A DNA stretch of 49,393 bases from Myxococcota bacterium (GTDB lineage: Bacteria; Myxococcota_A; UBA9160; PR03): the NCBI GenBank assembly GCA_025453505.1, contig JALOQG010000001.1, positions 1-49,393 on the forward strand, given 5' to 3'. The translations under genes and the position numbers were made by a program. Shown here one piece after another: positions 6,471 through 20,504 of this stretch. The notes below the pieces were generated by a model. The model was given only the letters and a program-made list of their open reading frames with translations, was not told the origin of the DNA and searched no databases. Position 1 is the first letter of the stretch. The number at the start of each line of letters is the position of its first letter.

Positions 6471-7688
6471 GTGGCGCCGGCAGTCGATCGATCCGGTGAA
6501 GTGCTCGCGTCCCTCGCGACGCGCCTCGCGCGTGCGGGGGCGAACCTCACCGTCGAGCGGACCGATGCGCCGCCGCTCGCGATCGGCGCGCATCCCGGCC
6601 GCGCGCGCGTCGTGTTCCGCGACGCCGCGGCGCTCGCGCCGCTGCTGCGCGGTGATCACCTCGGGCTCGCCGAGGCGTATCTGCACGGGCGCATCGATCT
6701 CGCCGGCGATCTCGCGGAGATCGTGAAGGTCACCGACGTCCTCGCCATCGACGAGTCGCCCTGGGACCGCGTGCGCGTCGCGCTCGGCCTGCTGCTGCGC
6801 GGCCGCCGCGCGCTGAACCGCGACGCCATCTCCTTCCATTACGACCGCCCGCCCGACTTCTTCTTGCCGTGGCTCGAACGCTGGCGCTCGTACTCGCACG
6901 GCTTCTGGTCGGCGCCCGACGACGATCCCGCCGACGCCCAGGCCCGCAAGCTGCAGTTCGCGATCGATGCGCTCGATCTGCGTCCGGGCGACCGCGTGCT
7001 CGACATGGGGGCCGGATGGGGCTCGTTCGTCGAGTACGCGGGCCTGCAAGGCATTCGCGTGCACGGCATCACGATCTCGCGCGAGCAGCACCGCTTCGTC
7101 GAAACGCTGATCCGCGAGCGCGGGCTGCCCTGCACGGTCGAGTTCGTCGACTTCTTCCAGTACCGGCCGCGCGAGCGCTTCGCCGGCGCCGTCTTCCTCG
7201 GCACGCTCGAGCACGTGGTCGACTACGCGTACGCCGCGCGCTTCCTGGCGGAGCACCTCGCGCCCGGCGGCCGCGTCTACGCGGACTTCGTCGCGCGTTG
7301 CGCGGGCTTCCGCACCGGCCGCTTCCTCTCGCGCTGGATCTGGCCGGGCACGACGAGCTACGTCGATCTCGCAGCGCTCGTCCGCGCGCTCGGCGACGCC
7401 GGCTTCCACCTGCACGCGCTCGGCGACGACGGACTCTCGTACGCATGGACGGTGCGCGACTGGGCGCGGCGGCTCGAGCTGCACCGCAAGACGCTGGCCG
7501 AGCGTTTCGGCGAGCCCGCGGTGCGCGCGTTCCTGCTCTATCTCTGGGGCTCGTTCCATTTCCTCGAACGGGGACACACGCTCGCGTATCACCTCGTCGC
7601 CGCGCGCGAGCCGCGTCGCGCGGCTCCCCACGCGAGGACGGTCGCCACGACGCAAGCGAACGCGAACGCGTCGCCGACGCGTCCGTAG
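6471..7688 (+). CDS. Cyclopropane-fatty-acyl-phospholipid synthase family SAM-dependent methyltransferase
   Basis: 405 aa, GTG start. ISFHYDRPPDFF, SAM-binding LDMGAGWGSF, GITISREQ, AVFLGTLEHV and the C-terminal LYLWGSFHFLERG match the CFA/mycolic acid synthase layout. Confidence 0.85.
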   Translation: MAPAVDRSGEVLASLATRLARAGANLTVERTDAPPLAIGAHPGRARVVFRDAAALAPLLRGDHLGLAEAYLHGRIDLAGDLAEIVKVTDVLAIDESPWDRVRVALGLLLRGRRALNRDAISFHYDRPPDFFLPWLERWRSYSHGFWSAPDDDPADAQARKLQFAIDALDLRPGDRVLDMGAGWGSFVEYAGLQGIRVHGITISREQHRFVETLIRERGLPCTVEFVDFFQYRPRERFAGAVFLGTLEHVVDYAYAARFLAEHLAPGGRVYADFVARCAGFRTGRFLSRWIWPGTTSYVDLAALVRALGDAGFHLHALGDDGLSYAWTVRDWARRLELHRKTLAERFGEPAVRAFLLYLWGSFHFLERGHTLAYHLVAAREPRRAAPHARTVATTQANANASPTRP

Positions 7689-9148
7689 AACGAGCGGTCC
7701 GCGCGCGGCTCGATCCAGCCCGTCTCGACGGCGCGCTCGAAGGGCGTCGTGCGGACCTGCACGCGGCCCCACGGATCGACGATCGCGGAGGGACCCGAGG
7801 TGGACGCACGCACCAGCCAGCGGCGCTGCTCCACTGCGCGCAGCCGCACGATGTCGAAGAGGTGATCGGCGAAGCGGCGACTCGGAATCCAGGTGTCGTT
7901 CGACGGATTGAGCAGGAACTCCGCTCCTTCCGCGACGCGGCGGCCCGCCATCTCGGGCAGCATGGCCTCGTTGCAGAGCAGCACGCCGGCGCGTCCGGCG
8001 CGCGTCGCGAGGGGCGGCGTCGGCGCGCCGAACGAGAAGAAGCGAACGTCCGCGAAGCGCCGCCGCACGAAGTCGAACGCGCCGAGCGGCGGATACTCGG
8101 CGAAGGGCACCAGCGCCTGCTTGTCGTACGCGGCCGGCCGGCGCCCGCTCGCATCGACCACGAAGACGCTGTTGAAGAAGCGGAACGACGGCTCGTCACC
8201 TTCCCTGCGCGGCCCGCCGACGGCGATCTCGCCGCCTCCGCCGGCGGCCAGGCTGGCGATCGACGTCTCGTACTCCGGCTCCCGTTCGAGGAAGAAGGTG
8301 AGGGCGCTCTCCGGCCACGCGACGAGCGCGCCGGGCGCGCGGCGGAACGCCTCGACCGTTCCGTCGAAGTAGGCCTGGTACTCCGCCGCGTCGGACCGCC
8401 AGCGCCGCTCGAGGTTCACGTGACCCTGCACGACCGCGACGGGTCGCGCGTCCGCCACTGGAACGCCCGGCGGCGGTGCGTCGCGCAGCGTCCAGACGCC
8501 GAAGGCGAACAGCGCCGCGGCCGGCGCGACGCCCGCCGCGAGCAGCCCGGACAAGTGCGTGCGCGCGCGACCCTGCCGAGCGAGCGCGACGGCCTCGGCG
8601 AGCGCGGCGTTCGCGGCGACGATCGCAAAGCCGATCCCATGGACACCGAAGAGAGACGCCGCCTGCACGGCGACGTCGAGGCCCACCTGGGAATAACCGA
8701 GCAGGCCCCACGGATTCGACAGGAACGCGACCGCCGTGAAGAGGCGCCCGCGTCCCACTTCGGCGGCGGTCCACGCCGCAGCGGTGGCCCACGGCATCCA
8801 GCGCGGATCGAGGCGTTCCGCGAGCCCGCGGTACACGGCCGCGAACGCCATGTAGTAGAGCCCGGCCATTCCCGTCGAGATGCCGAAGAAGAAGAGCCAT
8901 CCGACCCAGCGCGGCTGGAGGAAATAGGTGGCGACCGCGTCCGGCATCCAGCTTCCGACCGTCCACGCGGCGAGCAGCGTCCAGACTTCGCCGAGCACGA
9001 GCGCGCGTGCGAGACCGGCGCCGCGCAGCGCGAGCAGGAAGGGCACGAGCGCGATCCAGGCGAGCGGCTTCACGCTCGCGGGCGGGAAGGCGAGCCCGAA
9101 GGCGATCGCCGACCCGGCGGTCGCCGCGATGCGCACGGGCCCCGTCAC
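7589..9148 (-). CDS. lnt: Apolipoprotein N-acyltransferase
   Basis: 519 aa, the C-terminal part of the 1735-aa track ORF. Multi-TM N-terminus (LAWIALVPFLLAL...), then a CN-hydrolase domain with VAWPESAL, YDKQALVPFAEY and GVLLCNEAM (catalytic Glu/Lys/Cys context). The GTG at 9148-9146 overlaps the cyclase stop (GTGA). Confidence 0.92.
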   Translation of the reverse strand: MTGPVRIAATAGSAIAFGLAFPPASVKPLAWIALVPFLLALRGAGLARALVLGEVWTLLAAWTVGSWMPDAVATYFLQPRWVGWLFFFGISTGMAGLYYMAFAAVYRGLAERLDPRWMPWATAAAWTAAEVGRGRLFTAVAFLSNPWGLLGYSQVGLDVAVQAASLFGVHGIGFAIVAANAALAEAVALARQGRARTHLSGLLAAGVAPAAALFAFGVWTLRDAPPPGVPVADARPVAVVQGHVNLERRWRSDAAEYQAYFDGTVEAFRRAPGALVAWPESALTFFLEREPEYETSIASLAAGGGGEIAVGGPRREGDEPSFRFFNSVFVVDASGRRPAAYDKQALVPFAEYPPLGAFDFVRRRFADVRFFSFGAPTPPLATRAGRAGVLLCNEAMLPEMAGRRVAEGAEFLLNPSNDTWIPSRRFADHLFDIVRLRAVEQRRWLVRASTSGPSAIVDPWGRVQVRTTPFERAVETGWIEPRADRSFYGRVGDAFAFACVVATVLAWGAARRGSRAATR

Positions 9149-12100
9149 GTGCGGTCGCAGAGCGCTGCGGCGACGTCGCGTTCGGCGGCGAGGCCGAGCG
9201 CGGCGAATCCGTCGCGGGCGGCGGCGAGCAGGGCGACGGCGGAGTCGTTCGTTGCCGCGAGCCGGCGGCCCATCTCGAGCCGGGTGCGCGCGAGCTCGGG
9301 CCGCATGCCCAGCGATCCAGCGACGTCGAGACTCTCGTTCCAGCGTCGCTGGGCGGTGTCGTGGCGGCCGACGATCCATGCTTCCGTGCCTGCACTCCGC
9401 AACACCTCGGGCCGCCGCCACGCCACGCGCGTCGCGAGTCGCAGGGCGGCGCTCCGGCTGCGCGCGGCGTTGCGCCGCTCGCGGCGTCCCGCGCCGGGTT
9501 CCTCGAGACGCGCGACGTCGAGGATCTGTCGCGCACGCAGCAAGTCGCAGGCGTGGTACGGCAGCAGGCGCCCGGCTCCCTGCAGCCGCTGCTCGCCGCG
9601 CGCGAGGCTCGCACGTGCACCCTCGGCGTCGCCGGCCAGCCACTGCGCCACCGCGCGGTGTCCGAGCGCCGAGACCTGGAACGCAGGCTCGGCGTGCTCG
9701 TCGAGATACTCGTCGAGCGCGGCGATCGCGCCGCCGAGATCCCGGCGTTCGAGCCGCGTCATCGCGACCAGGAATCGCTGCGCAGACGCCGCGAGGTCGT
9801 AGCGATACTGGTCGGCGATCTTCGCGAGCCGCTCGGCGCAGGTCGCGGCGGCGTCCCAATCGCCGCGGTAGAGGCGGCGCAGGCCGTCGAGGTTGAGCGA
9901 GTTGGTCACCTCCCAGAGGCGGCCGTAGCGGAGCCCGTCCTCGAGCAGCGCTTCGTCGGCGACGTGGGCGTCGCTCCAATGCCCGGCCAGCACGTGGTGG
10001 AGCTGGCTCATCATCCGGTAGTGGACGCGATCGCGGACGTCGTCGTCGCGCACGAGCCGGCGCGCGCGCGCGAGGAAGCGCCGCCCGATCGCGAACGACA
10101 CGCCGCCGTACGAGAAGATCCCGACCGCGCCCGCATACATCGCGCCGGCGCCCGGAACCGTCGAAGGATCGACACGCCCGAGTCGCGCGAGCGTCGCGAC
10201 CGAATCGAACACGAAGCGCGTCGGCGACGCGGTCGTCTGCGTCTGCGCGCGCTCGTACATGATCGCGATGATCTCGCGGTCCACGTCGCGTGCCGGTCGC
10301 GCGGCCATGCGCCCGGGCGACACGAGCTGCGCGAGCACCGCGAGGGCGTCGCGCGCGAACGCCGCGACCAGGCGCCCGTTGCTGCGCGGCACCCGCACGC
10401 CGAGATGTTCGAGCGCCTGCTGGTAGTGCTCGTCCGCCTCGAGCAGGCGCCCGCGGTGGAAGAGTGCGAGCGCGACGTGATGCGCGAGGCGCGCCTTCCT
10501 GGCGGGGTCGCCGCCCGCGCCGTGTCGCGCGAGGTAGAGCTTCGAAGCCTCCTGGAAGAAGTGGAGCGCCTCGCTCGACGCCGCGACGCGCGCGGCGTCC
10601 TCGCCGGCGCGGAACAGGAACTCCTCGGCGCGCGTGGCGTCGCCGCCCTTTCCGTAGTGCCACGCCAACATGCCCGCGCGGCCGGGCACGGTATCGGGGA
10701 GGCGTTCCTCGATCGCCCTCGCCACCGAACGGTGGAGCTCCTCGCGCCGCGTCTCGAGCAGTCCGTCGTAGACGACCTCGTGCAGGAGCGGATGCGCGAA
10801 CGCCCACTCGACGCCGCTGCTGCGATCCCACGGCACGAGGAACTCGGCCTCCGCGAGGCGGAGCAGGTCCTCGGCGACACGCGTCGCTTCGCCGAGCACG
10901 CCGACGAGCACGGCTTCGTGGAAGCTGCGTCCGATCACCGACGCGAGCTGGAGCAGGCTGCGCCGCTGCGCCGGCAGCCGGTCCACGCGCGCCATCACTA
11001 CGCCGTGCAGCGTGTCCGGGATCGTGACCTCGTGGATGCGGTCGGTGGCGCGGAAGCGGCCGTCCGGATCGTGCTCGACGGCGCCTGCGTCGACGAGCGC
11101 GCGCACGACCTCCTCGAGGAAGAACGGATTGCCCTGCGCCCGGTCCTCGATCGTCGCGCGCGTGGCGTGCGGCAGCGCATCGGTCGCGAACAGGTTCGCG
11201 AGCAGCTCGCGCGCCGCGCCGCGCGGCAGCGGCTCGAGACGCACCACCAGCAGATCGACGCCGGCGGCGCGCGCCGATGCTTCCGCGCGGTCCGCCGTCG
11301 CCGTGTGACCGGGCCGCGCGACGAACGCGAAGAGGATCGCGTGCTCGCGCGCGAGCGGCAGCAACGCCGCGAGCAGCTCGATCGACGACTCGTCGGCCCA
11401 GTGCAGGTCGTCCATCACGAAGACGACGGGCCGGTCGCTCGCGGCGCCGCGCAGCAGCTGGCCGATCGTGCGGTGCAGCAGCTTCTCGCGCGCATCGCCC
11501 GCGATGCGTTCGATGCGCGCGCGCTGCGGGGCATCGAGGCGCAGGCCGACGAGGTTGGCGAGCAGTGGCGCTGCATCCTGCGCTTCGCCGGGCAGCCAGC
11601 GGCCGGCGAGCGCGTCGAGCTTCGCGCGCGCCGCGCCCTCGTCGTCGGCGTCGCCGATGCCCGCCCAGCCGCGCAGCAGGTCTGCGAAAGGGTGGAAGCG
11701 CAGGCTGCGGCCGGTCGAGAGCGAGCGTCCCTCGAGCCACGTGAGCGACGCCGCCTCGGGGCTCGCGGCCAGCTCCGCGACGAGCCGCGACTTGCCGAGT
11801 CCCGCTTCGGCTTGCAGCGCGACGGCGCCGCCGTGACCGCCGGCGAGTGCGACGAGCCGCTCGCGCAGCGTCGCGAGTTCGCTGCCGCGGCCGACCAGCG
11901 GCGAGAACACGCGGCGTCCGCGGCCGGCGCGCTCCCGGTGCCGCTGCACGCGATCGGAGCGCAGCTCGAACGCGGCGATGGGCGCGTCGTGTCCGGCGAG
12001 CGTGAGCGGGGCGAGCGGCGCGAACTCGAAGACGCCGCGCACGAGCCGCTCGGTGTCGGCGCCGACGAAGATCTGTCCGGCCTCGGCCCAGTCGGTGAGC

Positions 12101-13848
12101 TGCGAGGCGACGTCGACGGGATCGCCCATCACGGCGAACTCGCGCAGCAGCGGACCGCTGACGTCGCCGGCGATGCCGAGCCCGGTGTGGATGCCCGCGT
12201 GCACGGAGAGCGGCGGCTCGATGCCCCGCTCGGCGTTGTAGGCGCGCACCCGCTCGCGCATCTCGATCGCCGCGTTGATCGCAGCGCGCGGCGCGTCCTC
12301 GATCGCCTCGGGCACGCCGAAGGTCGCCATCACGCAGTCGCCGAGATGCTTCTCGACGTGCCCGCCGTGATCGCGTGCGATGCCGTCGAGCAGATCGAGA
12401 CAGCCGGCGACGACCGGGTAGGCCGCCTCCGCGCCGAGCCGCTCGGTCATCGCGGTGAAGCCGCTGATGTCGGCGAACAGGATCGTCGCGCGACGCCGTT
12501 CGGCGTCGGCAGAGCGGGCGGCGCGATCGGCCTGCGCGCGTTCGGTCGCGAGCGCCGGCGCGAGGTGGACGCCGAGCACGAGACGTCCCGGGTGATCGCC
12601 GGCCCGTTCGAGGAGCAGCGCGCGCGCGTCCGGTGCGAGCGCGGCGTCCGGTGCGAGTGCGTCGACCAGACGCTCGGCGTCGGCTCGGCCCAGTCGGCCG
12701 AGCCGGATCTCGCGGCAGCATTCGCCGAGCGCGCGCGCGCACACGGCCAACGGCGCGTCGCTCGTCTCGGCCGTCACGACGAAGAGCAGCGGGCACTGCG
12801 TCGCGAGCGCGAGCGCCGGCGCCAGCGCGGCGAACGATTCCGGGTCGAGTCGCTCGACGTCCTCGATCACGACGAGGAGCGGCCGGGCCCGGGCGGACGC
12901 GGAGAGAGCGGTCGCCACGGCGGCGGACAGCGAGGCGGGATCCGTCGTGTCGATCGAAGCGCCGCCGAGCGCCGCGACGAGATCACGGGCGGCGCTTCCG
13001 CGCGCGGCGTCCTCGGAGGCCGGATGCAGGACGACGACCGCGATGCCGGCCAGCGCGGGCTCGGTGGCGAGATCCGCGAGCAGCCGCGAACGCCCCGAAC
13101 CGTCTTCGCCGAGCAGCGCGATCGCTCCGCCGCGGCCGCCGGCGAGCGCACCGATCGCATCGGCGAGCGCCGCGCGTTCGGCGTCGCGGCCGATCAGGCG
13201 CGCGGCGGGCGGATCCTCCGGCGCGAGTGTGCGTACCGCGCGCGAGCCGCGTACGCCGATCAGCTCCGCCGCTGCGACCGTCCGCGATTTGCCCTCGAGC
13301 GCGAGCGCCTCGAGCGGCGTCCAAGCGAAGCGGTCGCCGGCCTCGCGCACGCTCGCCGCGTCCCCGCGGATCGCGTCGAGACGGGCGCGCGCCTTGAGGC
13401 GCGCCGCGACATTGACGGTGTCGCCGAGCACGTGGAACTCGCGAACGACGCGGCCGCCGACGTCGCCCGCGACGATCGCGCCGGTCGCGATGCCCCCCTG
13501 GAGCGCGAGACGCACCGGGAGCCCGAGCGCGCGGTCGTAGGCGCGCACCTGCCGGCGCATGTCGAGGACCGCCTCCGCCGCGGCGCGCGCCGGACGCGCG
13601 AGCGGTGCGGGATGTCCGAACACGACCATCAGGCTGTCGCCCTGGTACTTGTCGACCGCGCCGCCGTGGCGGCGCGCGATCGCATCGAGCAGACGCAGAC
13701 AGCCCGTCACCGCGAGGTACGCGCGCTCCGGGCCGACGGATTGCGACAACGCCGTGAAGCCCGCGACGCCGACGAAGACGATCGTGGCGTCGACCCGGCG
13801 TGCCGCCGGCGGCTCGGGTCGGTGGCCGTCGCGTGCGGGGACATCCAT
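9145..13848 (-). CDS. Multidomain signalling protein: class III cyclase domain 1, degenerate P-loop NTPase, class III cyclase domain 2, STAND/AAA ATPase, helical/TPR-like C-terminal region
   Basis: 1567 aa. CHD1 spans about aa 20-195 (IVFVGVAGFT, KYQGDSLMVVFG, GDTVNVAARL). NTPase-like 1 has GEDGSGRSRL. CHD2 spans about aa 452-630 (ILFADISGFT, KHLGDCVMATFG, GDPVDVASQL). NTPase 2 has Walker A AEAGLGKSRL and Walker B VVFVMDDLHWAD. A helical region of about 650 aa follows. Confidence 0.9.
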   Translation of the reverse strand: MDVPARDGHRPEPPAARRVDATIVFVGVAGFTALSQSVGPERAYLAVTGCLRLLDAIARRHGGAVDKYQGDSLMVVFGHPAPLARPARAAAEAVLDMRRQVRAYDRALGLPVRLALQGGIATGAIVAGDVGGRVVREFHVLGDTVNVAARLKARARLDAIRGDAASVREAGDRFAWTPLEALALEGKSRTVAAAELIGVRGSRAVRTLAPEDPPAARLIGRDAERAALADAIGALAGGRGGAIALLGEDGSGRSRLLADLATEPALAGIAVVVLHPASEDAARGSAARDLVAALGGASIDTTDPASLSAAVATALSASARARPLLVVIEDVERLDPESFAALAPALALATQCPLLFVVTAETSDAPLAVCARALGECCREIRLGRLGRADAERLVDALAPDAALAPDARALLLERAGDHPGRLVLGVHLAPALATERAQADRAARSADAERRRATILFADISGFTAMTERLGAEAAYPVVAGCLDLLDGIARDHGGHVEKHLGDCVMATFGVPEAIEDAPRAAINAAIEMRERVRAYNAERGIEPPLSVHAGIHTGLGIAGDVSGPLLREFAVMGDPVDVASQLTDWAEAGQIFVGADTERLVRGVFEFAPLAPLTLAGHDAPIAAFELRSDRVQRHRERAGRGRRVFSPLVGRGSELATLRERLVALAGGHGGAVALQAEAGLGKSRLVAELAASPEAASLTWLEGRSLSTGRSLRFHPFADLLRGWAGIGDADDEGAARAKLDALAGRWLPGEAQDAAPLLANLVGLRLDAPQRARIERIAGDAREKLLHRTIGQLLRGAASDRPVVFVMDDLHWADESSIELLAALLPLAREHAILFAFVARPGHTATADRAEASARAAGVDLLVVRLEPLPRGAARELLANLFATDALPHATRATIEDRAQGNPFFLEEVVRALVDAGAVEHDPDGRFRATDRIHEVTIPDTLHGVVMARVDRLPAQRRSLLQLASVIGRSFHEAVLVGVLGEATRVAEDLLRLAEAEFLVPWDRSSGVEWAFAHPLLHEVVYDGLLETRREELHRSVARAIEERLPDTVPGRAGMLAWHYGKGGDATRAEEFLFRAGEDAARVAASSEALHFFQEASKLYLARHGAGGDPARKARLAHHVALALFHRGRLLEADEHYQQALEHLGVRVPRSNGRLVAAFARDALAVLAQLVSPGRMAARPARDVDREIIAIMYERAQTQTTASPTRFVFDSVATLARLGRVDPSTVPGAGAMYAGAVGIFSYGGVSFAIGRRFLARARRLVRDDDVRDRVHYRMMSQLHHVLAGHWSDAHVADEALLEDGLRYGRLWEVTNSLNLDGLRRLYRGDWDAAATCAERLAKIADQYRYDLAASAQRFLVAMTRLERRDLGGAIAALDEYLDEHAEPAFQVSALGHRAVAQWLAGDAEGARASLARGEQRLQGAGRLLPYHACDLLRARQILDVARLEEPGAGRRERRNAARSRSAALRLATRVAWRRPEVLRSAGTEAWIVGRHDTAQRRWNESLDVAGSLGMRPELARTRLEMGRRLAATNDSAVALLAAARDGFAALGLAAERDVAAALCDRT

Positions 13849-14021
13849 GCGCGCGACAGGATATCGGCGTGAGACGGTGTCGCCGCGGCGGGTCGGCCCT
13901 GCAGCATGCGACGGGCGCGGATCGCGCGAGGCGTGCTAGTCGTTGCCGCCGCCGACCGGAGCCGCGTCGCACTCCGCGGCTCCCTCTCGGCTCCGGCCAT
14001 CCGCAACAGGAGAGGGCGCGC

Positions 14022-14849
14022 GTGCAGACCTTCGTCCTTCCCGGCTACCGCTCCCTGCGTCGCGTGGCGATCGGGCTGCTCTGTGCCGCAGCGCTCGGGG
14101 GCGCGTTCGCGCCCGAGGCGCGCGCGCAGGCGTCCGCCGAGGACGTCGAGCGCTGTCTGCGCCAGAACCTGCCGAAGCGGTCGAGCGTCCAGACGATGCG
14201 CTTCGACACGCGCGATCGCATGGGCAACACGCGCCGCATCGAGGGGAAGATCTTCTGGCGGCGCGGCGAGAGCGACGCGCACTCGAAGACGCTGGTCCGC
14301 ATCGAGGCCCCGCCCGAGCTGCGCGGATCGTCCTATCTGCTGCTCGAGAAGCCCGACGTGCTCGACATCTTCGTCTACCTGCCCGAGTTCCAGAAGGTGC
14401 GCCGCATCACGCCGCACGCGCTCGCGGGCTCGCTCTTCGGCACCGACTTCTCGTACGAGGACATGATGCGCCTGCGCCACGTCTTCGAGCGCCAGCGCGC
14501 CGAACGCCTCGCCGACGAGCGCGTCGGCGAGCGCGACGCGTTCGTCGTACAGCTCGTGCCGCCGCCGGAGTCGGGTTCGGCGTACGAGCGCGTCAAGGCG
14601 TGGGTCGATCAGAAGAGCTGCGTGCCGCTGCGCATGGAGTTCGTCGCGAAGGGCGGCTCGCTCGCCAAGGAACTCACCTCGGATCCCGCGACGTTTTCGC
14701 AGCGCGGCTCGATCTGGGTGGCGAGCGCCTTCGTGCTGCGCGACCTGCACGAGCAGACCGAGACCGCGCTCGAGCTCGGCGAGATCGAGGCGGACGTCGA
14801 CCTGCCCGACCGGCTCTTCAGCGAGCGGGCGCTCGCCCAGGGCAACTGA
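14022..14849 (+). CDS. Periplasmic LolA-like outer membrane lipoprotein-sorting family protein
   Basis: GTG at 14022 follows AGGAGAG (14008-14014). Signal peptide is RRVAIGLLCAAALGGAFAPEARAQ. The body (LLLEKPDVLDIFVYLPEFQKVRRI...GTDFSYEDM) resembles the LolA_like family that is usually encoded next to MMPL/RND exporters. Confidence 0.8.
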   Translation: MQTFVLPGYRSLRRVAIGLLCAAALGGAFAPEARAQASAEDVERCLRQNLPKRSSVQTMRFDTRDRMGNTRRIEGKIFWRRGESDAHSKTLVRIEAPPELRGSSYLLLEKPDVLDIFVYLPEFQKVRRITPHALAGSLFGTDFSYEDMMRLRHVFERQRAERLADERVGERDAFVVQLVPPPESGSAYERVKAWVDQKSCVPLRMEFVAKGGSLAKELTSDPATFSQRGSIWVASAFVLRDLHEQTETALELGEIEADVDLPDRLFSERALAQGN

Positions 14850-17485
14850 TTCGGCTGCTGGCGGGCATCGCGTCGCGACCGGGCCGGGTGCTCGCCGTCG
14901 CCGCGCTGGTCACGGCGGGCGCGCTCGCCGGGCTCGTCGATCTGCGCACCGGCGCGGTGCGGCTGAGCGTCGATCCCTCGGCCGTGCACCTGCTCCCCGC
15001 CACCGGCCCGGAGCGCGATCAATACGAGCGCGCCCGCCAGCTCTTCGGCGCCGAGGAGCCGTTCGTCGTCGCGCTCGCGGCCGACGACGTGTTCCGTCCC
15101 GACGTCCTGCGCCGCGTCGCGACGCTGAGTGCGGAGCTCGCGGCGCTGCCCGAGATCCACCACGTCGTGTCGCTCGCGACGGCGCCCGACGTGATCGCGA
15201 GCGAGAACGGCGACATCGAGCTGCGTCCGATCCTCGACGCGATTCCCGAGCGTCCCGAGGAGCTCGCGGCGCTGCGCGCGCGCACGCTCGGCAATCCGCT
15301 CTACCGCGGCACGCTGGTCGCCGACGACGCTCGCACCGTGGCGCTCTTCGCGTACCCGGATCGGCTCTCGTCGCGCGATCTGCTGGCCAGCGGCGTCGCC
15401 GATCGCGTCGAGGTCGCCGCGCGCGCGCACGCCGGAGCCGGCGTCGAGGTGTTCGTCAGCGGCATTCCGTTCGCGACCGCGAAGCTCTCCGACCTGCTGC
15501 TGCGCGAGCTGCGCACGCTGTTGCCGCTCACCGTGCTCGTGCTCTGCGTCGTGCTCGCCTTCGCGTTCCGATCGGTGCTCGGCGTCGTGCTGCCGATCAC
15601 GTCGGTGTCGCTCGCGCTCGTGTGGACGCTCGGCGTGATGGCCTGGACGGGCCGCTCGCTGAACCTCGTGACGGCGATCCTGCCTCCGCTCGTCGTCACG
15701 GTCGGCCTCGCGTACGCGATGCACGTCGTCGCGGATTTCGGCGCGCGGCTCGCCGAAATTCCCCGCGATCGCGCGGGGCGCATGCAGCTCGCCGGCGAAG
15801 TGGTCGGCGAGATCGGCGTCTCGGTGCTGCTGGCGGGCATGACCACGCTCGCGGGCTTCCTCTCGCTCGCGCTCTCGCCGATCGCGGCGATCCGCGAGCT
15901 CGCGCTCTTCGCGGTGCTCGGCGTCGCGTTCGCGGTCGTGTCGGCGATCACGGTCACGCCCGCGCTGCTCGCGGTACTGCCCGGCACCCCGGTGCGCGCG
16001 CCGCGCGGCGGCGATTGGCTGGGACGCAAGGCCGGCTCGCTCGCGGACTTCGCGGTGCGCCGCCGCGCTCTCATCGTGTCGGTGGCGGCCCTCGCGGTCG
16101 CTTTCGGTGCGTGGGGCGCACGCCGCATCGAGACGGCGACCGAGTTCGTCGGCAACCTCGATCGCAGCACGCAGATGCGCGCCGACTACGAGGCGATCAA
16201 CGCGCGGCTCGGCGGCGCCAACCTGATCCAGATCGCGATCGATTCGCCGCTGGAGCAGGCGTTTCTCGAGCCGGCGAACCTGCGCGTGCTCACCGAGCTG
16301 ACGCAATGGCTCGGCGCGCAACCGGAGATCGGCGGCGCGGTGTCGCTGGCCGACTACGTGGCGCTGGTGAATCACGCCATGTCGGACGGCGATCCCGCGG
16401 CGCTGCGTGTGCCCGACACGAAGCGCGCCGTCGGTCAGCTCCTGCTCTTCGGCGCCAGCGACGAGACCGAACGCCTGACCGACGCGCGCTATCAGACCGC
16501 GAACGTCGTGGTGCGTGCCAGCGTCGGCGACTCACGCGGCGTGGCGGCGCTGGTCGATTGCATCGAGACGCGGCTCGCCGCGCTGCCCGAGCCCCTGCAC
16601 GCGACGGTGACGGGCAACGTCGTGCTCTTCGGCAAGAGCCTCGACGACCTCGCCGGCGGCCAGTGGGCGAGCCTCGGCGCCGCCTTCCTGATGATCTACG
16701 CGTGTCTCGCCGCGCTCTTCACCTCGCTCCTCGTCGGTTCGATCGCGCTCGGCATCGCCGCCGACGACACGATCCACACCATGGCGCGCTTCAACACCGA
16801 GGCGCGCCGGCTCGGCGACGAGCGGCGCGCGATCGACGCGGCCCTGCGCGGCGTGATCCGGCCGATCACGTTCACGCTCGTGGGACTCTGCCTCGGCTTC
16901 TCGGTGCTCGGATTCTCCGAGCTGCGTTCGCAAGCGGAGTTCGGCCTGCTCGCGGCCGCGACGCTGGCGGTCGGCTGGGTGGTGGACATGACGCTGACGC
17001 CGGCGCTCTGCGCGGGCGTGCGCGTGGTGACGCTGTGGGACGTGCTGACGCTCGATCTCGGCGCCGATCCCGCGCGCGAGATCCCGCTCTTCGCCGGCAT
17101 GAGCCGCCAGCAGATGCGGATCTTCGTGCTGCTCGCGTCGCCGCGTACGCTCGCCGCCGGCGAGCTGCTCTTCCGCGAGGGCGATCCGGCGCGGCACGGA
17201 TACCTGGTCCTGGAAGGACGCCTCGAGACGTCGGTGGACCGCGACGGCGAACGCATCGTGCTCGAGCCGATCGAACGCGGGGACACCACGGGCGAGATCG
17301 GCCTTTTCGCGATGCGGCGCAGCGCCGACGTGCGCGCGCTCGCGCCGACGCGGCTGGTGCGCTTCGACGGCGAAGATCTCGAGCGGCTGCGGCTCCGCTC
17401 GCCGCGCACCGCCGCGCTGCTGTATCGCAACCTGAACCGGATCCAGTCCGAGCGCCAGCTCGTGACCAGCGTCCGGGTGCGCTGA
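14846..17485 (+). CDS. MMPL/RND-superfamily exporter (COG1033-type) fused to a C-terminal cyclic-nucleotide-binding domain
   Basis: Two-lobed RND layout. The first bundle has FRSVLGVVLPITSVSLALVWTLGVMAWTGRSLNLVTAILPPLVVTVGLAYAMH and the second has IALGIAADDTIH. The C-terminus (about 17078-17470) has a CAP-type cNMP domain (LFAGMS..., GEIGLFAMRRSADVRA). The start is uncertain: no ATG/GTG/TTG precedes the conserved N-terminus. Candidates are CTG at 14846 (overlapping the upstream TGA) or GTG at 14888. Confidence 0.85.
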   Translation: MIRLLAGIASRPGRVLAVAALVTAGALAGLVDLRTGAVRLSVDPSAVHLLPATGPERDQYERARQLFGAEEPFVVALAADDVFRPDVLRRVATLSAELAALPEIHHVVSLATAPDVIASENGDIELRPILDAIPERPEELAALRARTLGNPLYRGTLVADDARTVALFAYPDRLSSRDLLASGVADRVEVAARAHAGAGVEVFVSGIPFATAKLSDLLLRELRTLLPLTVLVLCVVLAFAFRSVLGVVLPITSVSLALVWTLGVMAWTGRSLNLVTAILPPLVVTVGLAYAMHVVADFGARLAEIPRDRAGRMQLAGEVVGEIGVSVLLAGMTTLAGFLSLALSPIAAIRELALFAVLGVAFAVVSAITVTPALLAVLPGTPVRAPRGGDWLGRKAGSLADFAVRRRALIVSVAALAVAFGAWGARRIETATEFVGNLDRSTQMRADYEAINARLGGANLIQIAIDSPLEQAFLEPANLRVLTELTQWLGAQPEIGGAVSLADYVALVNHAMSDGDPAALRVPDTKRAVGQLLLFGASDETERLTDARYQTANVVVRASVGDSRGVAALVDCIETRLAALPEPLHATVTGNVVLFGKSLDDLAGGQWASLGAAFLMIYACLAALFTSLLVGSIALGIAADDTIHTMARFNTEARRLGDERRAIDAALRGVIRPITFTLVGLCLGFSVLGFSELRSQAEFGLLAAATLAVGWVVDMTLTPALCAGVRVVTLWDVLTLDLGADPAREIPLFAGMSRQQMRIFVLLASPRTLAAGELLFREGDPARHGYLVLEGRLETSVDRDGERIVLEPIERGDTTGEIGLFAMRRSADVRALAPTRLVRFDGEDLERLRLRSPRTAALLYRNLNRIQSERQLVTSVRVR

Positions 17486-17486
17486 G

Positions 17487-20400
17487 ATGGCGCGACTCGT
17501 CGACGTGCGCGCCGACGAGCGCGAGCGCTTCGGCTGGTTCGCCGCGCTGGCGGCGCTGCTCGCGTTCGGACAGATGCTGGGCCAGGCCGGCACCGAGTCG
17601 CTCTTCCTCGCGCGGCTCGGTGCGGAACGCCTGCCCGAGGCGTTCGTATTCGCGTCGATCTCGACGGTGGCGGCGTCGCTCCTCTACGCGATGCGCGTCG
17701 GGCACGCGCGCAACGACCGCGTCGCCGTCGAGCTGCTGGGGCTCGCCGTCGTCGCGATCGGCGCCGGCGCCTTCGCGCTGCGGCAGGGCTCGGAGATCGC
17801 GCTCGTCGCGCTCTTCTGTCTCTTCTTCGCGACGCAGGCGGTGCTGATCGGTCACTTCTGGACGCTGCTCGGCGACTTCTTCGACACGCTGGCGGCCAAG
17901 CGCGTGGTGCCCCTCTGTACCGTGGGACTCTCGTTCGGCGGCGCCCTCGGCGGCGGAGCGGCGCTCGGCGTCGTGTCGACGTTGCCGGCGGAGATGTTGC
18001 TGGTCGGCTGGGCGCTGGGTCTCGTGGCCGCGGCGGTGCTGGTCGCGACCTCGCACGGCCGGCTCGCGCGGTGGCGCGCCGTCTCGCAGGGCGAGGAGGA
18101 CGAGACGTCGGTCGAGGGGCTGCGCGCCGCCGTGCGCTACCTGCGCGGCTCGCGGCTCGGCCGCCGGCTCTTCGTATCGGCGCTGACGATGGTGCTCGCG
18201 CTCTTCGTCGCGCAGTACCTCTACTCCGCGCGGATCGCGGCGGCGTTTCCGGACGAAGCGGAGCTGGCGCGCTTTCTCGCGATCTACCTGATGGTGAGCA
18301 ACGCCGTCGAGATCGGGGTCGAACTCTTTGTGACGCCTTTCGCCATCCGGCGCCTCGGCGTTCCCGCGGCGAACCTGATCCAGCCGCTCGCGACGCTCGC
18401 GACCTTCGTCGGACTCGGCTTCGCGCCGGGGCTGCCGGTGGCGGTGCTGGCGCGCGCCAACCGCGAGCTGCTGGACAACGCGCTCGCCGCGCCCGTGCGC
18501 ACGCTCGCGGCGAACGCGCTGCCCGATCGCTTCCGCGCCCGCGTGCGCGCCTTCCTCGAAGGCATCGTGGTGTATGCGGGCATGTCGCTCGCCGGCGTCG
18601 TCCTGCTGCTCGCGCGCGATCTCCCCGCCGAATCGCTGGTGCTCGCCGGTGCGGCGCTCGCCGGGCTGCATTTCCTCGCGAATCTCGGCGTGCGACGGCA
18701 GTACGTCGCGGCGATCGTCGGCGAGCTGCGGGCCGGTCGCTTCGACTGGCACGCGCTCGGCGACGAGATCGGCGCGCACGAGGTCGAGTCGCTGGCCGCG
18801 CTCTGGGAGCGCCTGGTCCGCGAGACGCCCGGCGATCCGGGACCCGCGCTGCTCGATCTGCCTCCGCTGCTCGTGCGCCACGGTCTCACGGCGCCGGTCC
18901 GCACGGCACTCGGACATCCGAGCCCGGCGCTGCGCGCGGCGTGTCTCGCGGCGCTCGCGGCTGCGCCCGAGGCGCAGGCGGATCCGGCGTTCTGGTTGCG
19001 CGTACTCGGCGACTCCGACGCAGACGTGCGTCGCGCGGCGCTGCGCCTGCTGCCCGACGCGCTGCTGGCCGGACCCGAGGTCCACGGCGCGCTGCGCGCG
19101 CTGCGCGACGACGCGGACCCGCGCGTGCGCGCCGCCGCCGCGCGCCGCCTCGGCGCCGAGGGCGAGCCGCTCTTCGCCGCGTTGCTGGCGTCGCCGGACA
19201 CCGGGAACGTCGCAGCGGCGCTCGAGTCGCTGCCGCCGGCGCTCGCCGGTGCGGCGGTCGCGCGGCTCGCGGATCCGGATGCGCGCCTGCGCGCGGCGGC
19301 GCTCGACGCGCTCGCGCGCGGTGGCGCGGAAGCGTCGCTCCAACCGCTCGCGACCTCGCGCCTCGCCGATCCGGACGCGCGCGTGCGGCGCGCGGCGGTT
19401 CGCGCCGTGGCCGGTACGGGTGCAGACGCGGCGGCGATCGCGCCGGCGCTTCGCGACCCCGCCCGCGAGGTGCGCAGCGAAGCGGTGCGCGCACTGGTGG
19501 AGCAGGGGGATCGCGGCGCCGTCGCGGCGCGTCCCTTGCTCGACGCGGGCGAGGAGTTCGCGGTGGGCGCGGCGTTGCGCGTGCTCGGCGCGGTGGGCTC
19601 GCCGTGGGCGGTCGCTTCGTTGCGCGAGCACTACGCGGCGCGCGTGCGCGAGGCCGTGCAGGCGTTCCTGTGCGCTCGCGTGTTCGCGACGACCGACGGC
19701 GTGCCCGTCTTCGTCGCGGCGGCCGGCAGCGACGCCCTCGCGCGCGCGCTGCGTCTCGCATGGCGTTCGCTGGCGCGGATCGAGGACGAGCGCGTCGTGC
19801 GCAGTGCCGAGCGTTCGCTGCGCGGCGCCACCGGCCGCATGCGCGCGGACGCGCTCGAAGTGCTCTCGCAGCTCGGAGACCGCGAGGCCTCGCAGCGCCT
19901 CGTGCTGCTGCTCGAGCCGATGCCCGTCGAAGAGAAGATCGAGGCGCTGCGTTCGTGGGGGCGTGTGCCGCGCGATGCGGCCGAAGCCATGACGCATGCC
20001 GCGGCGCTGTCGTCACCATGGATCCGGCTCGCGGTGCGCCGCCGGACGGATGCCGAGGAGATCCAGATGGAACGCCTGCTCTCGCTGCGCCAGGTCTCGT
20101 TGTTCGCGCACATGAGCCTCGAACGCCTGCACGCGGTCGAGCGCATCCTGCGCGACGCCGAGTACGTGCAGGGCGAGGTGATCCTGCGCGAACACGAGCC
20201 CGGCGACGACCTGTACCTGCTGGTCGAAGGCCACGTCGACGTGCTGCGCGGCGCGGGCACGCCGGGCGAGATGCTGCTCAACCGGCTCGGGCCGGGCGCC
20301 TACTTCGGCGAGATGGCCGTCCTCGACGGCACGCCGCGCAGCGCGACGATCGTCGCGGCGGGACCGGTGCGCGTGCTGGTGCTCGAAGGGGAGCGCCTGC

Positions 20401-20504
20401 GCGAACTCGTGCACGAGATGCCCGAGCTGGCGTTCGATCTGCTGCGCGTGCTGGCGGAGCGGGTGCGGAGGGCGGAGGAGCGGCTGGCGGCCGGGGAGTC
20501 GTGA
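17487..20504 (+). CDS. TLC/ATP-ADP-translocase-like MFS-type permease fused to HEAT repeats and a C-terminal cyclic-nucleotide-binding domain
   Basis: 1005 aa; the ATG is 1 nt after the upstream stop. The N-terminal polytopic domain has HFWTLLGDFFDTLAAKRVVPLCTVGLSFGGALGG (TLC-family FW...AKR motif). The central part has repeated ADPDARVRRAA-type HEAT units. The C-terminal CNB domain has LFAHMS..., FGEMAVLDGTPRSATIVA. Confidence 0.85.
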   Translation: MARLVDVRADERERFGWFAALAALLAFGQMLGQAGTESLFLARLGAERLPEAFVFASISTVAASLLYAMRVGHARNDRVAVELLGLAVVAIGAGAFALRQGSEIALVALFCLFFATQAVLIGHFWTLLGDFFDTLAAKRVVPLCTVGLSFGGALGGGAALGVVSTLPAEMLLVGWALGLVAAAVLVATSHGRLARWRAVSQGEEDETSVEGLRAAVRYLRGSRLGRRLFVSALTMVLALFVAQYLYSARIAAAFPDEAELARFLAIYLMVSNAVEIGVELFVTPFAIRRLGVPAANLIQPLATLATFVGLGFAPGLPVAVLARANRELLDNALAAPVRTLAANALPDRFRARVRAFLEGIVVYAGMSLAGVVLLLARDLPAESLVLAGAALAGLHFLANLGVRRQYVAAIVGELRAGRFDWHALGDEIGAHEVESLAALWERLVRETPGDPGPALLDLPPLLVRHGLTAPVRTALGHPSPALRAACLAALAAAPEAQADPAFWLRVLGDSDADVRRAALRLLPDALLAGPEVHGALRALRDDADPRVRAAAARRLGAEGEPLFAALLASPDTGNVAAALESLPPALAGAAVARLADPDARLRAAALDALARGGAEASLQPLATSRLADPDARVRRAAVRAVAGTGADAAAIAPALRDPAREVRSEAVRALVEQGDRGAVAARPLLDAGEEFAVGAALRVLGAVGSPWAVASLREHYAARVREAVQAFLCARVFATTDGVPVFVAAAGSDALARALRLAWRSLARIEDERVVRSAERSLRGATGRMRADALEVLSQLGDREASQRLVLLLEPMPVEEKIEALRSWGRVPRDAAEAMTHAAALSSPWIRLAVRRRTDAEEIQMERLLSLRQVSLFAHMSLERLHAVERILRDAEYVQGEVILREHEPGDDLYLLVEGHVDVLRGAGTPGEMLLNRLGPGAYFGEMAVLDGTPRSATIVAAGPVRVLVLEGERLRELVHEMPELAFDLLRVLAERVRRAEERLAAGES

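Follow-up and report, generated by a model that had tools for sequence, protein, structure and literature searches.

Complementary degeneracy of the two class III cyclase domains in a predicted STAND-type nucleotide cyclase of a Myxococcota bacterium

A stretch of 49,393 nt from a Myxococcota bacterium (contig JALOQG010000001.1 of assembly GCA_025453505.1; the whole stretch is called the window below) contains, in positions 9145..13848 of the reverse strand, a gene encoding a protein of 1567 amino acids, where two class III cyclase domains (CHD1 and CHD2) alternate with two NTPase domains (NOD1 and NOD2). Our analysis suggests, with a probability of about 0.72, that this protein is a soluble nucleotide cyclase of the STAND type whose cyclase domains form a head-to-tail pair within one chain, with one competent and one dead site, and that it arose by duplication of a whole cyclase-NTPase unit. 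In silico results carry this interpretation, namely the residue assignments, their conservation across the family, the duplication and the predicted geometry of the dimer; the cyclase activity itself, its product and downstream targets, and the part played by NOD1, are inferred.

Catalytic residues, the predicted domain pair and the NTPase domains

The modules follow in the order CHD1, NOD1, CHD2, NOD2 and a C-terminal helical/TPR region, and both PF00211 (Guanylate_cyc) and PF13191 (AAA_16) are found twice by Pfam. CHD1, a C2-like domain (residues 17-200, positions 13249..13800 of the reverse strand), matches Guanylate_cyc in residues 20-187 (E-value 5e-15, 56 bits), and CHD2, a C1-like domain (residues 450-633, positions 11950..12501, the same strand), does so in residues 453-620 (2.9e-20, 73 bits), the curated threshold of PF00211 being 21.9 bits. 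Individual residues were placed by phmmer alignments to PDB sequences, that is, to P. aeruginosa CyaB (3r5g, for both domains) and to adenylate cyclase chains 4p2f/4p2m (4p2f for CHD1).

The alignments show that the first metal-binding Asp of the FxDIxGFT motif corresponds to Gly in position 27 of CHD1 (codon GGC, 13768-13770), which differs from the Asp codon GAC by one transition; CHD2 has Asp460 in this place (GAC, 12469-12471). Lys and Asp of the KxxGD motif are aligned with K67/D71 in CHD1 and with K500/D504 in CHD2. The canonical Asn and Arg are aligned with N146 (AAT, 13411-13413) and R150 (CGC, 13399-13401) of CHD1, and the same positions of CHD2 are occupied by D579 (GAC, 12112-12114) and Q583 (CAG, 12100-12102). 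Moreover, CHD1 retains R136 and the gamma-phosphate Lys187 of the KGK motif, while CHD2 retains R569 without the gamma-phosphate Lys. In the second substrate-specifying position, neither His139 of CHD1 nor Ala572 of CHD2 is the canonical Asp or Thr. The resulting catalytic sets are G-K-D-H-N-R for CHD1 and D-K-D-A-D-Q for CHD2. Residue 185 (13294-13296), the first of KGK and a neighbor of K187, is Glu in the window protein and Lys in 106 of the 111 family sequences considered below.

Complementary degeneracy of the two domains had been proposed in an earlier note made from the DNA sequence alone. All residues and codon coordinates listed there agree with the sequence, and the alignments to solved cyclases, which could have shifted the catalytic residues, leave them in the canonical positions, as the note had placed them.

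When class III domains dimerise head-to-tail, the Asps of one domain meet Lys, Asn and Arg of the other in every site. Since every site is assembled in this way, the window protein can build only one: the full catalytic set is available for a single composite site, to which CHD2 brings D460/D504 and CHD1 brings K67/N146/R150. The mirror site is devoid of the first Asp, Asn and Arg. In the proposed mechanism, CHD2 would provide the metal-binding D460 and D504 together with the phosphate-binding R569, and CHD1 would provide K67, accompanied by the non-canonical His139, for contact with the base, Asn146/Arg150 for the transition state, and the gamma-phosphate Lys187. The pseudo-site, formed by G27/D71 of CHD1 and K500/A572/D579/Q583 of CHD2, would be unable to catalyse.

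The structure of the CHD1-CHD2 pair, whose modelling the earlier note had suggested, was predicted with AlphaFold2 for residues 1-640 (CHD1-NOD1-CHD2) as a monomer, using a family alignment of 107 sequences. The model is compact and confident, with the mean predicted local distance difference test score (pLDDT) of 93.3 and the predicted TM-score (pTM) of 0.92. Its top Foldseek matches in the PDB are single-chain two-domain C1-C2 cyclases, with target-normalised TM-scores of 0.72 for AC9 7pdf_A, 0.67 for AC9 6r4p_A and about 0.65 (over about 460 residues) for the human soluble adenylyl cyclase (sAC). CyaB has the same fold (target-normalised TM-score 0.88), but the query-normalised score is about 0.5 for C1-C2 chains versus 0.28 for single-CHD chains such as CyaB. 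As the two cyclase domains account for about 58% of the modelled stretch (640 residues), the score of about 0.5 implies that both of them are superposed at once, in the canonical head-to-tail arrangement. The division of labour of the C1/C2 type that the note had put forward, with CHD2 supplying the metal site and CHD1 supplying the Asn/Arg pair, is thus upheld by the alignments and by the superposition on C1-C2 chains.

The two NTPase domains have diverged as well, in agreement with the motifs reported earlier. NOD1 (residues 215-440, positions 12529..13206 of the reverse strand; AAA_16, 3.5e-15, 57 bits, the AAA_16/AAA_22 match covering roughly residues 217-360) is a degenerate AAA_16/STAND NTPase with the Walker A motif GEDGSGRS, where R253 (CGT) replaces Lys. 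NOD2 (residues 645-910, positions 11119..11916, the same strand; AAA_16, 2.4e-21, 77 bits, matching residues 650-834) is canonical. Its Walker A motif is AEAGLGKS and its Walker B motif is DDLHWAD, both being almost unchanged throughout the family. In nearly all family members Walker A of NOD1 is GK[ST], GRS being found in the window protein, P0001, P0002 and P0005 and in three sequences besides, P0055, P0072 and P0096 (here and below, P and L numbers denote related proteins and genomic loci, respectively). NOD1 is the most variable module (mean column entropy 2.17), and it is absent from P0097 and P0091 (about 1360 amino acids), where the C2-like CHD1 is joined directly to the C1-like CHD2, followed by NOD2 and the tail. 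This loss shows that NOD1 is dispensable, and it is consistent with a linker or scaffold role as well as with intrachain pairing of CHD1 and CHD2. NOD1 is probably a structured linker or scaffold, most likely a rigid one placed between the cyclase domains.

The C-terminal helical region (residues 911-1567, positions 9148..11118 of the reverse strand) has weak TPR matches (TPR_12, 2.6e-4, under the Pfam cut-off) and is conserved over its full length both within the family and among the closest single-unit proteins. In the STAND module it presumably serves as an arm for sensing or oligomerisation; together with NOD2 it would form a working STAND switch gating the output.

The reading frame of the cyclase is complete and starts, according to the list of open reading frames (ORFs), at the first ATG after the upstream stop codon. 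Two overlapping ORFs were rejected. The one at 9007..13872 of the forward strand (1621 amino acids) has an Arg/Ala-rich translation and looks like a spurious frame expected at the GC content of this DNA, 72-75%. The other, at 7589..12796 of the reverse strand (1735 amino acids), is likewise Arg/Ala-rich and seems spurious, only its 3' part being real, namely lnt (see below). Assignment to TIGR03903 (TOMM kinase/cyclase fusion), the sole NCBIfam match, was also rejected, as the score is 318.8 bits against the cut-off of 705.75 and the protein has no kinase domain; the match is confined to the part of the profile corresponding to the CHD-NTPase-helical region (profile positions 279-919). No membrane domains occur among the Pfam matches, which comprise CHD, AAA_16 and weak TPR only, no transmembrane-helix prediction having been made.

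Conservation across the family and the order of losses

The database search listed 120 relatives, of which 110 are full-length (at least 1400 amino acids) and share 41-78% identity with the window protein over almost its whole length. The sources named among them are Candidatus Binatia, Myxococcota, Deltaproteobacteria and "Proteobacteria" metagenome-assembled genomes (MAGs). The CHD-NTPase-CHD-NTPase architecture is a real and widespread family. Column counts given here refer to 111 sequences, that is, the 110 homologues and the window protein.

The residues assigned to the composite site are strongly conserved. In CHD1, Asn is present in position 146 of all 111 sequences, Arg in position 150 of 109, and the gamma-phosphate Lys in position 187 of 104, while in CHD2 the metal-binding Asps in positions 460 and 504 are found in 111/111 sequences each, and the phosphate-binding Arg569 in 103/111. 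The phosphate-binding Arg136 (108/111) and the second metal-binding Asp71 (109/111) of CHD1 are conserved too, and His in position 139 is present in 85 sequences. The counterpart positions of CHD2 show another picture, with Asn in position 579 of only 10/111 and Arg in position 583 of only 24/111 sequences. Positions 579, 583 and 620 are among the most variable ones of CHD2, position 620, the site of the gamma-phosphate Lys, being hypervariable. Still, CHD2 as a whole is more conserved than CHD1 (mean column entropy 1.20 vs 1.37), and thus the constraint has been lifted at these particular sites rather than by a general decay of the domain.

These data also bear on the possibility that neither site is catalytic, the cyclase pair serving as a nucleotide-binding or scaffold module for the STAND ATPase. 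G27, D579 and Q583 each replace a canonical catalytic residue, His139 and Ala572 are non-canonical, and residue 185 deviates from the Lys typical of the family, all of which would suit a pseudo-enzyme. On the other hand, all residues of the composite site are present in the window protein and are invariant or nearly so in the family, while the pseudo-site positions drift, which is the pattern that selection for one working site would give. We therefore regard a fully inactive protein as very improbable and prefer the assignment of one competent site.

The degeneracy of CHD1 has a much narrower distribution than that of CHD2. Asp is found in position 27 in 100 of the 111 sequences, and Gly is restricted to the window protein, P0001 and P0002; Ser occurs here in P0004, P0006, P0007 and P0009, and Asn in P0096 and P0102. 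Thus, the loss of Asn and Arg from CHD2 is general in the family, while the loss of Asp27 from CHD1 is confined to the small clade containing the window protein. P0001 and P0002 are representatives of separate 90%-identity clusters, come from different contigs and are 77-78% identical to the window protein; since both share G27 and the GRS Walker motif with it, the pattern is not a sequencing artefact.

The order of these states was studied on a tree built from CHD2, NOD2 and the tail, with single-unit relatives providing the root. The early-branching P0119, P0104, P0108, P0109, P0081 and P0085 have DKDANR in both domains. They are followed by a large crown group with His139 in CHD1 and degenerate CHD2. 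The clade of the window protein is nested in this crown and has S27 or G27 in addition, its innermost part having also GRS in the Walker A motif of NOD1. Judging from this tree, the losses accumulated step by step, and the strictly complementary pattern of the window protein is their most derived outcome, which has appeared late, in one lineage. The order of losses in the proposed scenario would be Asn, Arg and Lys of CHD2, then Asp27 of CHD1, then the Walker Lys of NOD1.

Origin of the two units and comparison with known cyclases

The earlier note had also suggested an internal duplication of a cyclase-STAND unit, followed by specialization, and a phylogeny of the two halves as its check. Unit 1 (residues 16-420) and unit 2 (residues 449-908) are indeed colinear, with 34% identity over 467 columns (E-value 5e-51), and their alignment spans the cyclase domain, the NTPase and the following helical domain. 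As an outgroup we used 68 single-unit CHD-NOD-TPR proteins from many phyla, taken from the matches listed in a scan of GTDB genomes; among these listed matches there are at least two clear loci of the family, L005 (Deltaproteobacteria MAG) and L006 (Myxococcota MAG), the rest being mostly single-unit. In the neighbor-joining (NJ) tree, units 1 and 2 form a clade to the exclusion of the 68 single-unit proteins in 193 of 200 bootstrap replicates, which supports the suggested duplication. Within this clade the two units form separate subclades, except for P0075, and probably P0077, where unit 1 groups with its own unit 2. The NOD1 Walker motifs of these two proteins (1665-1678 amino acids) resemble those of NOD2 (A..GVGKS, DDLQxAD), which indicates a later re-copying or gene conversion. 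When closer single-unit relatives were added, the clade of unit 1 was recovered in 83 of 100 NJ bootstrap replicates. These relatives, obtained in an exhaustive search of representatives with unit 1, are 1120-1160 amino acids long and share the whole C-terminal region.

The single-unit relatives have the complete D-K-D-T-N-R set, and hence the ancestor was a symmetric homodimer. In the proposed scenario, a whole CHD-NOD unit of such a homodimeric single-unit ancestor would have been duplicated in tandem. Alternatively, two already divergent paralogous single-unit genes might have been fused. Some single-unit proteins score up to 195 bits against unit 1, compared with 173 bits for unit 2 of the same window protein, and a few of the closest single-unit relatives nest with unit 2, as would be expected after a fusion. 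Against it speak the monophyly of the two units relative to the diverse single-unit proteins, the Ala shared by both units of the basal members in the substrate position (where the outgroups have Thr), and the P0075/P0077 lineage, which demonstrates unit-level re-copying within this very gene. In view of these observations, a fusion origin seems distinctly unlikely, and the internal duplication is well supported, but not proven at the maximum-likelihood standard. Units seem to have been duplicated repeatedly among STAND cyclases: P0140 (1708 amino acids) has the order CHD-NOD-partial tail-CHD-NOD-tail, two complete CHD-NOD-tail units are present in P0165, and P0244 and P0249 are similarly long (about 2250-2330 amino acids), with four matched stretches each.

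A number of points weigh against the overall interpretation. First, the phylogeny is not entirely clean: when the closest single-unit relatives are included, a few single-unit proteins fall beside or inside the unit 2 clade, which is compatible with unit 1 having been lost secondarily or with artefacts of the NJ method caused by the fast evolution of unit 1, and which blurs the duplication scenario. Second, CHD1 keeps both metal-binding Asps in about 90% of the family, and therefore the second site, or CHD1:CHD1 pairing, may still matter in the relatives, the state of the window protein possibly being due to recent drift. Third, His139 is non-canonical in the second substrate-specifying position, so that the identity of the product is not given by the sequence, and the replacement of the Walker Lys by Arg in NOD1 need not abolish nucleotide binding. 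Finally, the geometry of the composite site is deduced from global TM-scores and from the known geometry of class III dimers, and a model of a monomer does not distinguish a pair formed within one chain from a pair formed by two protomers.

The last point leaves some room for an arrangement where the active CHD1:CHD2 pair is formed between protomers once the STAND module oligomerises, and cyclase activity would report the assembly. STAND proteins generally signal by nucleotide-dependent multimerisation, and the complete CHD1 of most family members would permit additional inter-chain pairings. Still, the confident compact monomer model superposes on single-chain C1-C2 cyclases, and CHD1 and CHD2 of P0097 and P0091 are connected by a short linker, much as in sAC. 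We consider pairing between protomers unlikely.

As in the mammalian transmembrane adenylyl cyclases (tmAC) AC1-9, there are two cyclase domains per chain, one contributing the metal-binding Asps and the other contributing Lys, Asn, Arg and the gamma-phosphate Lys. Unlike AC1-9, whose order is TM1-C1-TM2-C2, the window protein has no membrane domains among its Pfam matches and starts with the C2-like domain. The cyclase domains are separated by an NTPase of about 230 residues instead of a bundle of six transmembrane helices, and the substrate-specifying pair is Lys/His instead of Lys/Asp. As the bacterial single-unit relatives with the D-K-D-T-N-R set are much closer, the origin of the family is independent of AC1-9.

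Similarity in architecture is also observed with sAC (ADCY10), which is likewise soluble and has two complementary cyclase domains and a tail containing a STAND-type NTPase. In full-length sAC, a STAND P-loop region is predicted after C1-C2 (PMC12802110), which makes the likeness of the general plan a genuine one. According to phmmer, CHD1 aligns with C2 of human sAC (residues 292-418) and CHD2 with C1 (residues 42-189). This similarity is weak (E-values 3e-7 and 2.4e-4, respectively) and does not establish orthology, the scores of bacterial homodimeric cyclases being far better. Moreover, in sAC the metal-binding C1 precedes C2, the two are joined directly, and there is one NTPase, whereas the window protein has the order C2-like, NOD1, C1-like, NOD2. 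Even in the deletion variants P0097 and P0091, where the cyclase domains are adjacent, the C2-like domain comes first, unlike in sAC. The Arg of the bicarbonate site of sAC presumably corresponds to Gln583 of the window protein. Taken together, the comparisons suggest that the window protein would work like C1/C2 of tmAC and like sAC, with one catalytic and one pseudo-site in one chain, being a member of neither family.

Among bacterial proteins, the single-unit CHD-AAA_16-TPR cyclases (for example P0154-P0259, roughly 1100-1160 amino acids, and loci L007-L083) share the CHD-NOD-helical/TPR unit with the window protein. They have one cyclase domain with the complete D-K-D-T/S-N-R set and no internal duplication, and are expected to form symmetric homodimers with two sites. 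Judging by sequence, proteins of this type appear as the evident ancestors of both units. Their characterised analogue would be the Rv0386 group of M. tuberculosis (CHD-ATPase-HTH). CyaB (3r5g) is the best-scoring solved structure for both cyclase domains, with 62 bits for CHD1 and 95 bits for CHD2, but it is a class IIIb homodimer with two complete sites, the Lys/Thr pair and no STAND module.

Another group consists of tandem CHD-CHD-NOD-TPR proteins of 1300-1415 amino acids (P0141-P0143, P0149-P0151, P0153, P0156, P0161 and P0187). Here the first cyclase domain keeps the Asps and has no Asn/Arg, and the second one keeps K/T/N/R and has no Asps, that is, the order is that of sAC. These proteins belong to the same STAND-cyclase subfamily as the window protein, but only the cyclase domain, and not NOD, has been duplicated, and the domain order is opposite. 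Since they fall outside the clade of units 1 and 2, they represent a second, independent invention, and pseudo-heterodimers have evolved in this subfamily at least twice. The idea that they are orthologues of sAC is not supported, as P0141 reaches only about 43 bits with sAC, compared with 110 bits with CyaB. The same tandem-CHD architecture is found in L060 and L084 (Archangium lansingense), and sAC-like tandem cyclases were reportedly described in Chloroflexus by Kobayashi et al. in 2004, a work cited in PMC11006738. For the doubled CHD-NTPase-CHD-NTPase-TPR cyclase itself no description was found in the literature, the search having been made without many subscription papers, so that this absence is weak evidence.

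Genomic neighborhood and possible role

The gene downstream of the cyclase encodes the apolipoprotein N-acyltransferase Lnt (7589..9148, reverse strand; domains LNT_N and CN_hydrolase), and its GTG start codon at 9148 overlaps the cyclase stop codon by 4 nt. Lnt is encoded downstream of the cyclase in the window and in all six family loci L001-L006, whose cyclases range from 77% down to 43% identity. In L003, an ORF of 1582 amino acids (12886-17634) with no Pfam match on record, absent from the window, lies between the cyclase and lnt, and L005 has a gap of similar size in this place (about 14640-19540). The linkage suggests an unusually stable and so far unexplained pairing of a signalling cyclase with lipoprotein N-acylation. 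Genes of the CMAS type (cyclopropane/mycolic-acid-synthase-type methyltransferases), another lipid-modification neighbor, adjoin the cyclase-lnt pair in L001 (16254-17414), L002 (7505-9989) and L004 (14277-15440).

A divergent operon on the forward strand begins with a gene for a LolA-like outer-membrane lipoprotein-sorting protein (13800..14849; PF17131, 2e-42), whose true start is probably downstream of 13800. It is followed by an MMPL/RND-type transporter with a C-terminal domain binding cyclic nucleotides (cNMP) (14846..17485; PF03176, 5e-27; PF00027, 6e-20) and by a HEAT-repeat protein of 1005 amino acids, also with a C-terminal cNMP-binding domain (17487..20504; PF13646; PF00027, 1e-20). 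The phosphate-binding cassettes of both proteins are intact (GEIGLFAMRRSA in the MMPL protein, GEMAVLDGTPRSA in the HEAT-repeat protein) and end in R-S-A, an ending typical of cAMP receptors such as CAP, which may serve as a weak pointer to cAMP. HEAT-repeat orthologues adjoin the cyclase-lnt pair in L001 and L006, and, as a raw count, cNMP-binding genes are found near the cyclase in five of the seven loci (the window, L001, L003, L004 and L006). The MMPL and HEAT-repeat proteins are candidate receivers of the cyclase product. The product would most likely be cAMP, read by these neighboring cNMP-binding proteins, which would tie the cyclase to the lipoprotein-related and envelope functions of Lnt, the LolA-like protein and the MMPL transporter.

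The same neighborhood could suggest defence against phages, by a system like Pycsar or like the Avs-type STAND proteins, where the cyclase signals to neighboring cNMP-binding effectors. The PycC models of PADLOC match the cyclase domains at 2e-29, and the PycTIR and Effector models give weak matches (24-43 bits, in their cNMP-binding part) to the cNMP-binding domains of the neighbors. However, these matches span generic CHD and cNMP-binding domains only; neither a TIR domain nor a small transmembrane effector is present, MMPL or HEAT repeats being found instead, and the neighbors (Lnt, LolA-like, MMPL) are housekeeping envelope genes. The synteny of the cyclase and Lnt, kept from 77% to 43% identity, indicates a gene inherited vertically with the chromosome and not a defence island. 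A role in defence is thus extremely improbable.

A more far-reaching scenario, which we consider doubtful, is that the freed pseudo-site, with its conserved K500 and D71, and the pseudo-NTPase NOD1 have been recruited as an allosteric ligand module, that the Lys/His pair alters the product or the regulation, and that the signal is wired to envelope biogenesis via Lnt, the MMPL transporter and the HEAT-repeat protein. The family would then be a still-segregating record of a symmetric-to-asymmetric change with every intermediate extant.

The asymmetry of tmAC and sAC is explained in textbooks by duplication followed by complementary decay, and, to our knowledge, the animal intermediates are long gone. 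The family described here, from uncultured bacteria (more than 110 members with 41-78% identity), holds proteins with two complete domains, those with only CHD2 degenerate, and those with both domains degenerate, like the window protein, as well as proteins whose first NTPase is dead and others where it has been deleted. This extant series would offer a testable record of the way in which one of two sites is abandoned and of the fate of the pseudo-site. It also indicates that whole cyclase-STAND units can be duplicated, and the independent tandem-CHD group has reached the opposite domain order. As a hypothesis, a yet unexplored cyclic-nucleotide input into envelope lipoprotein biology is suggested by the conserved coupling with Lnt and by the cNMP-binding transporters encoded close by.

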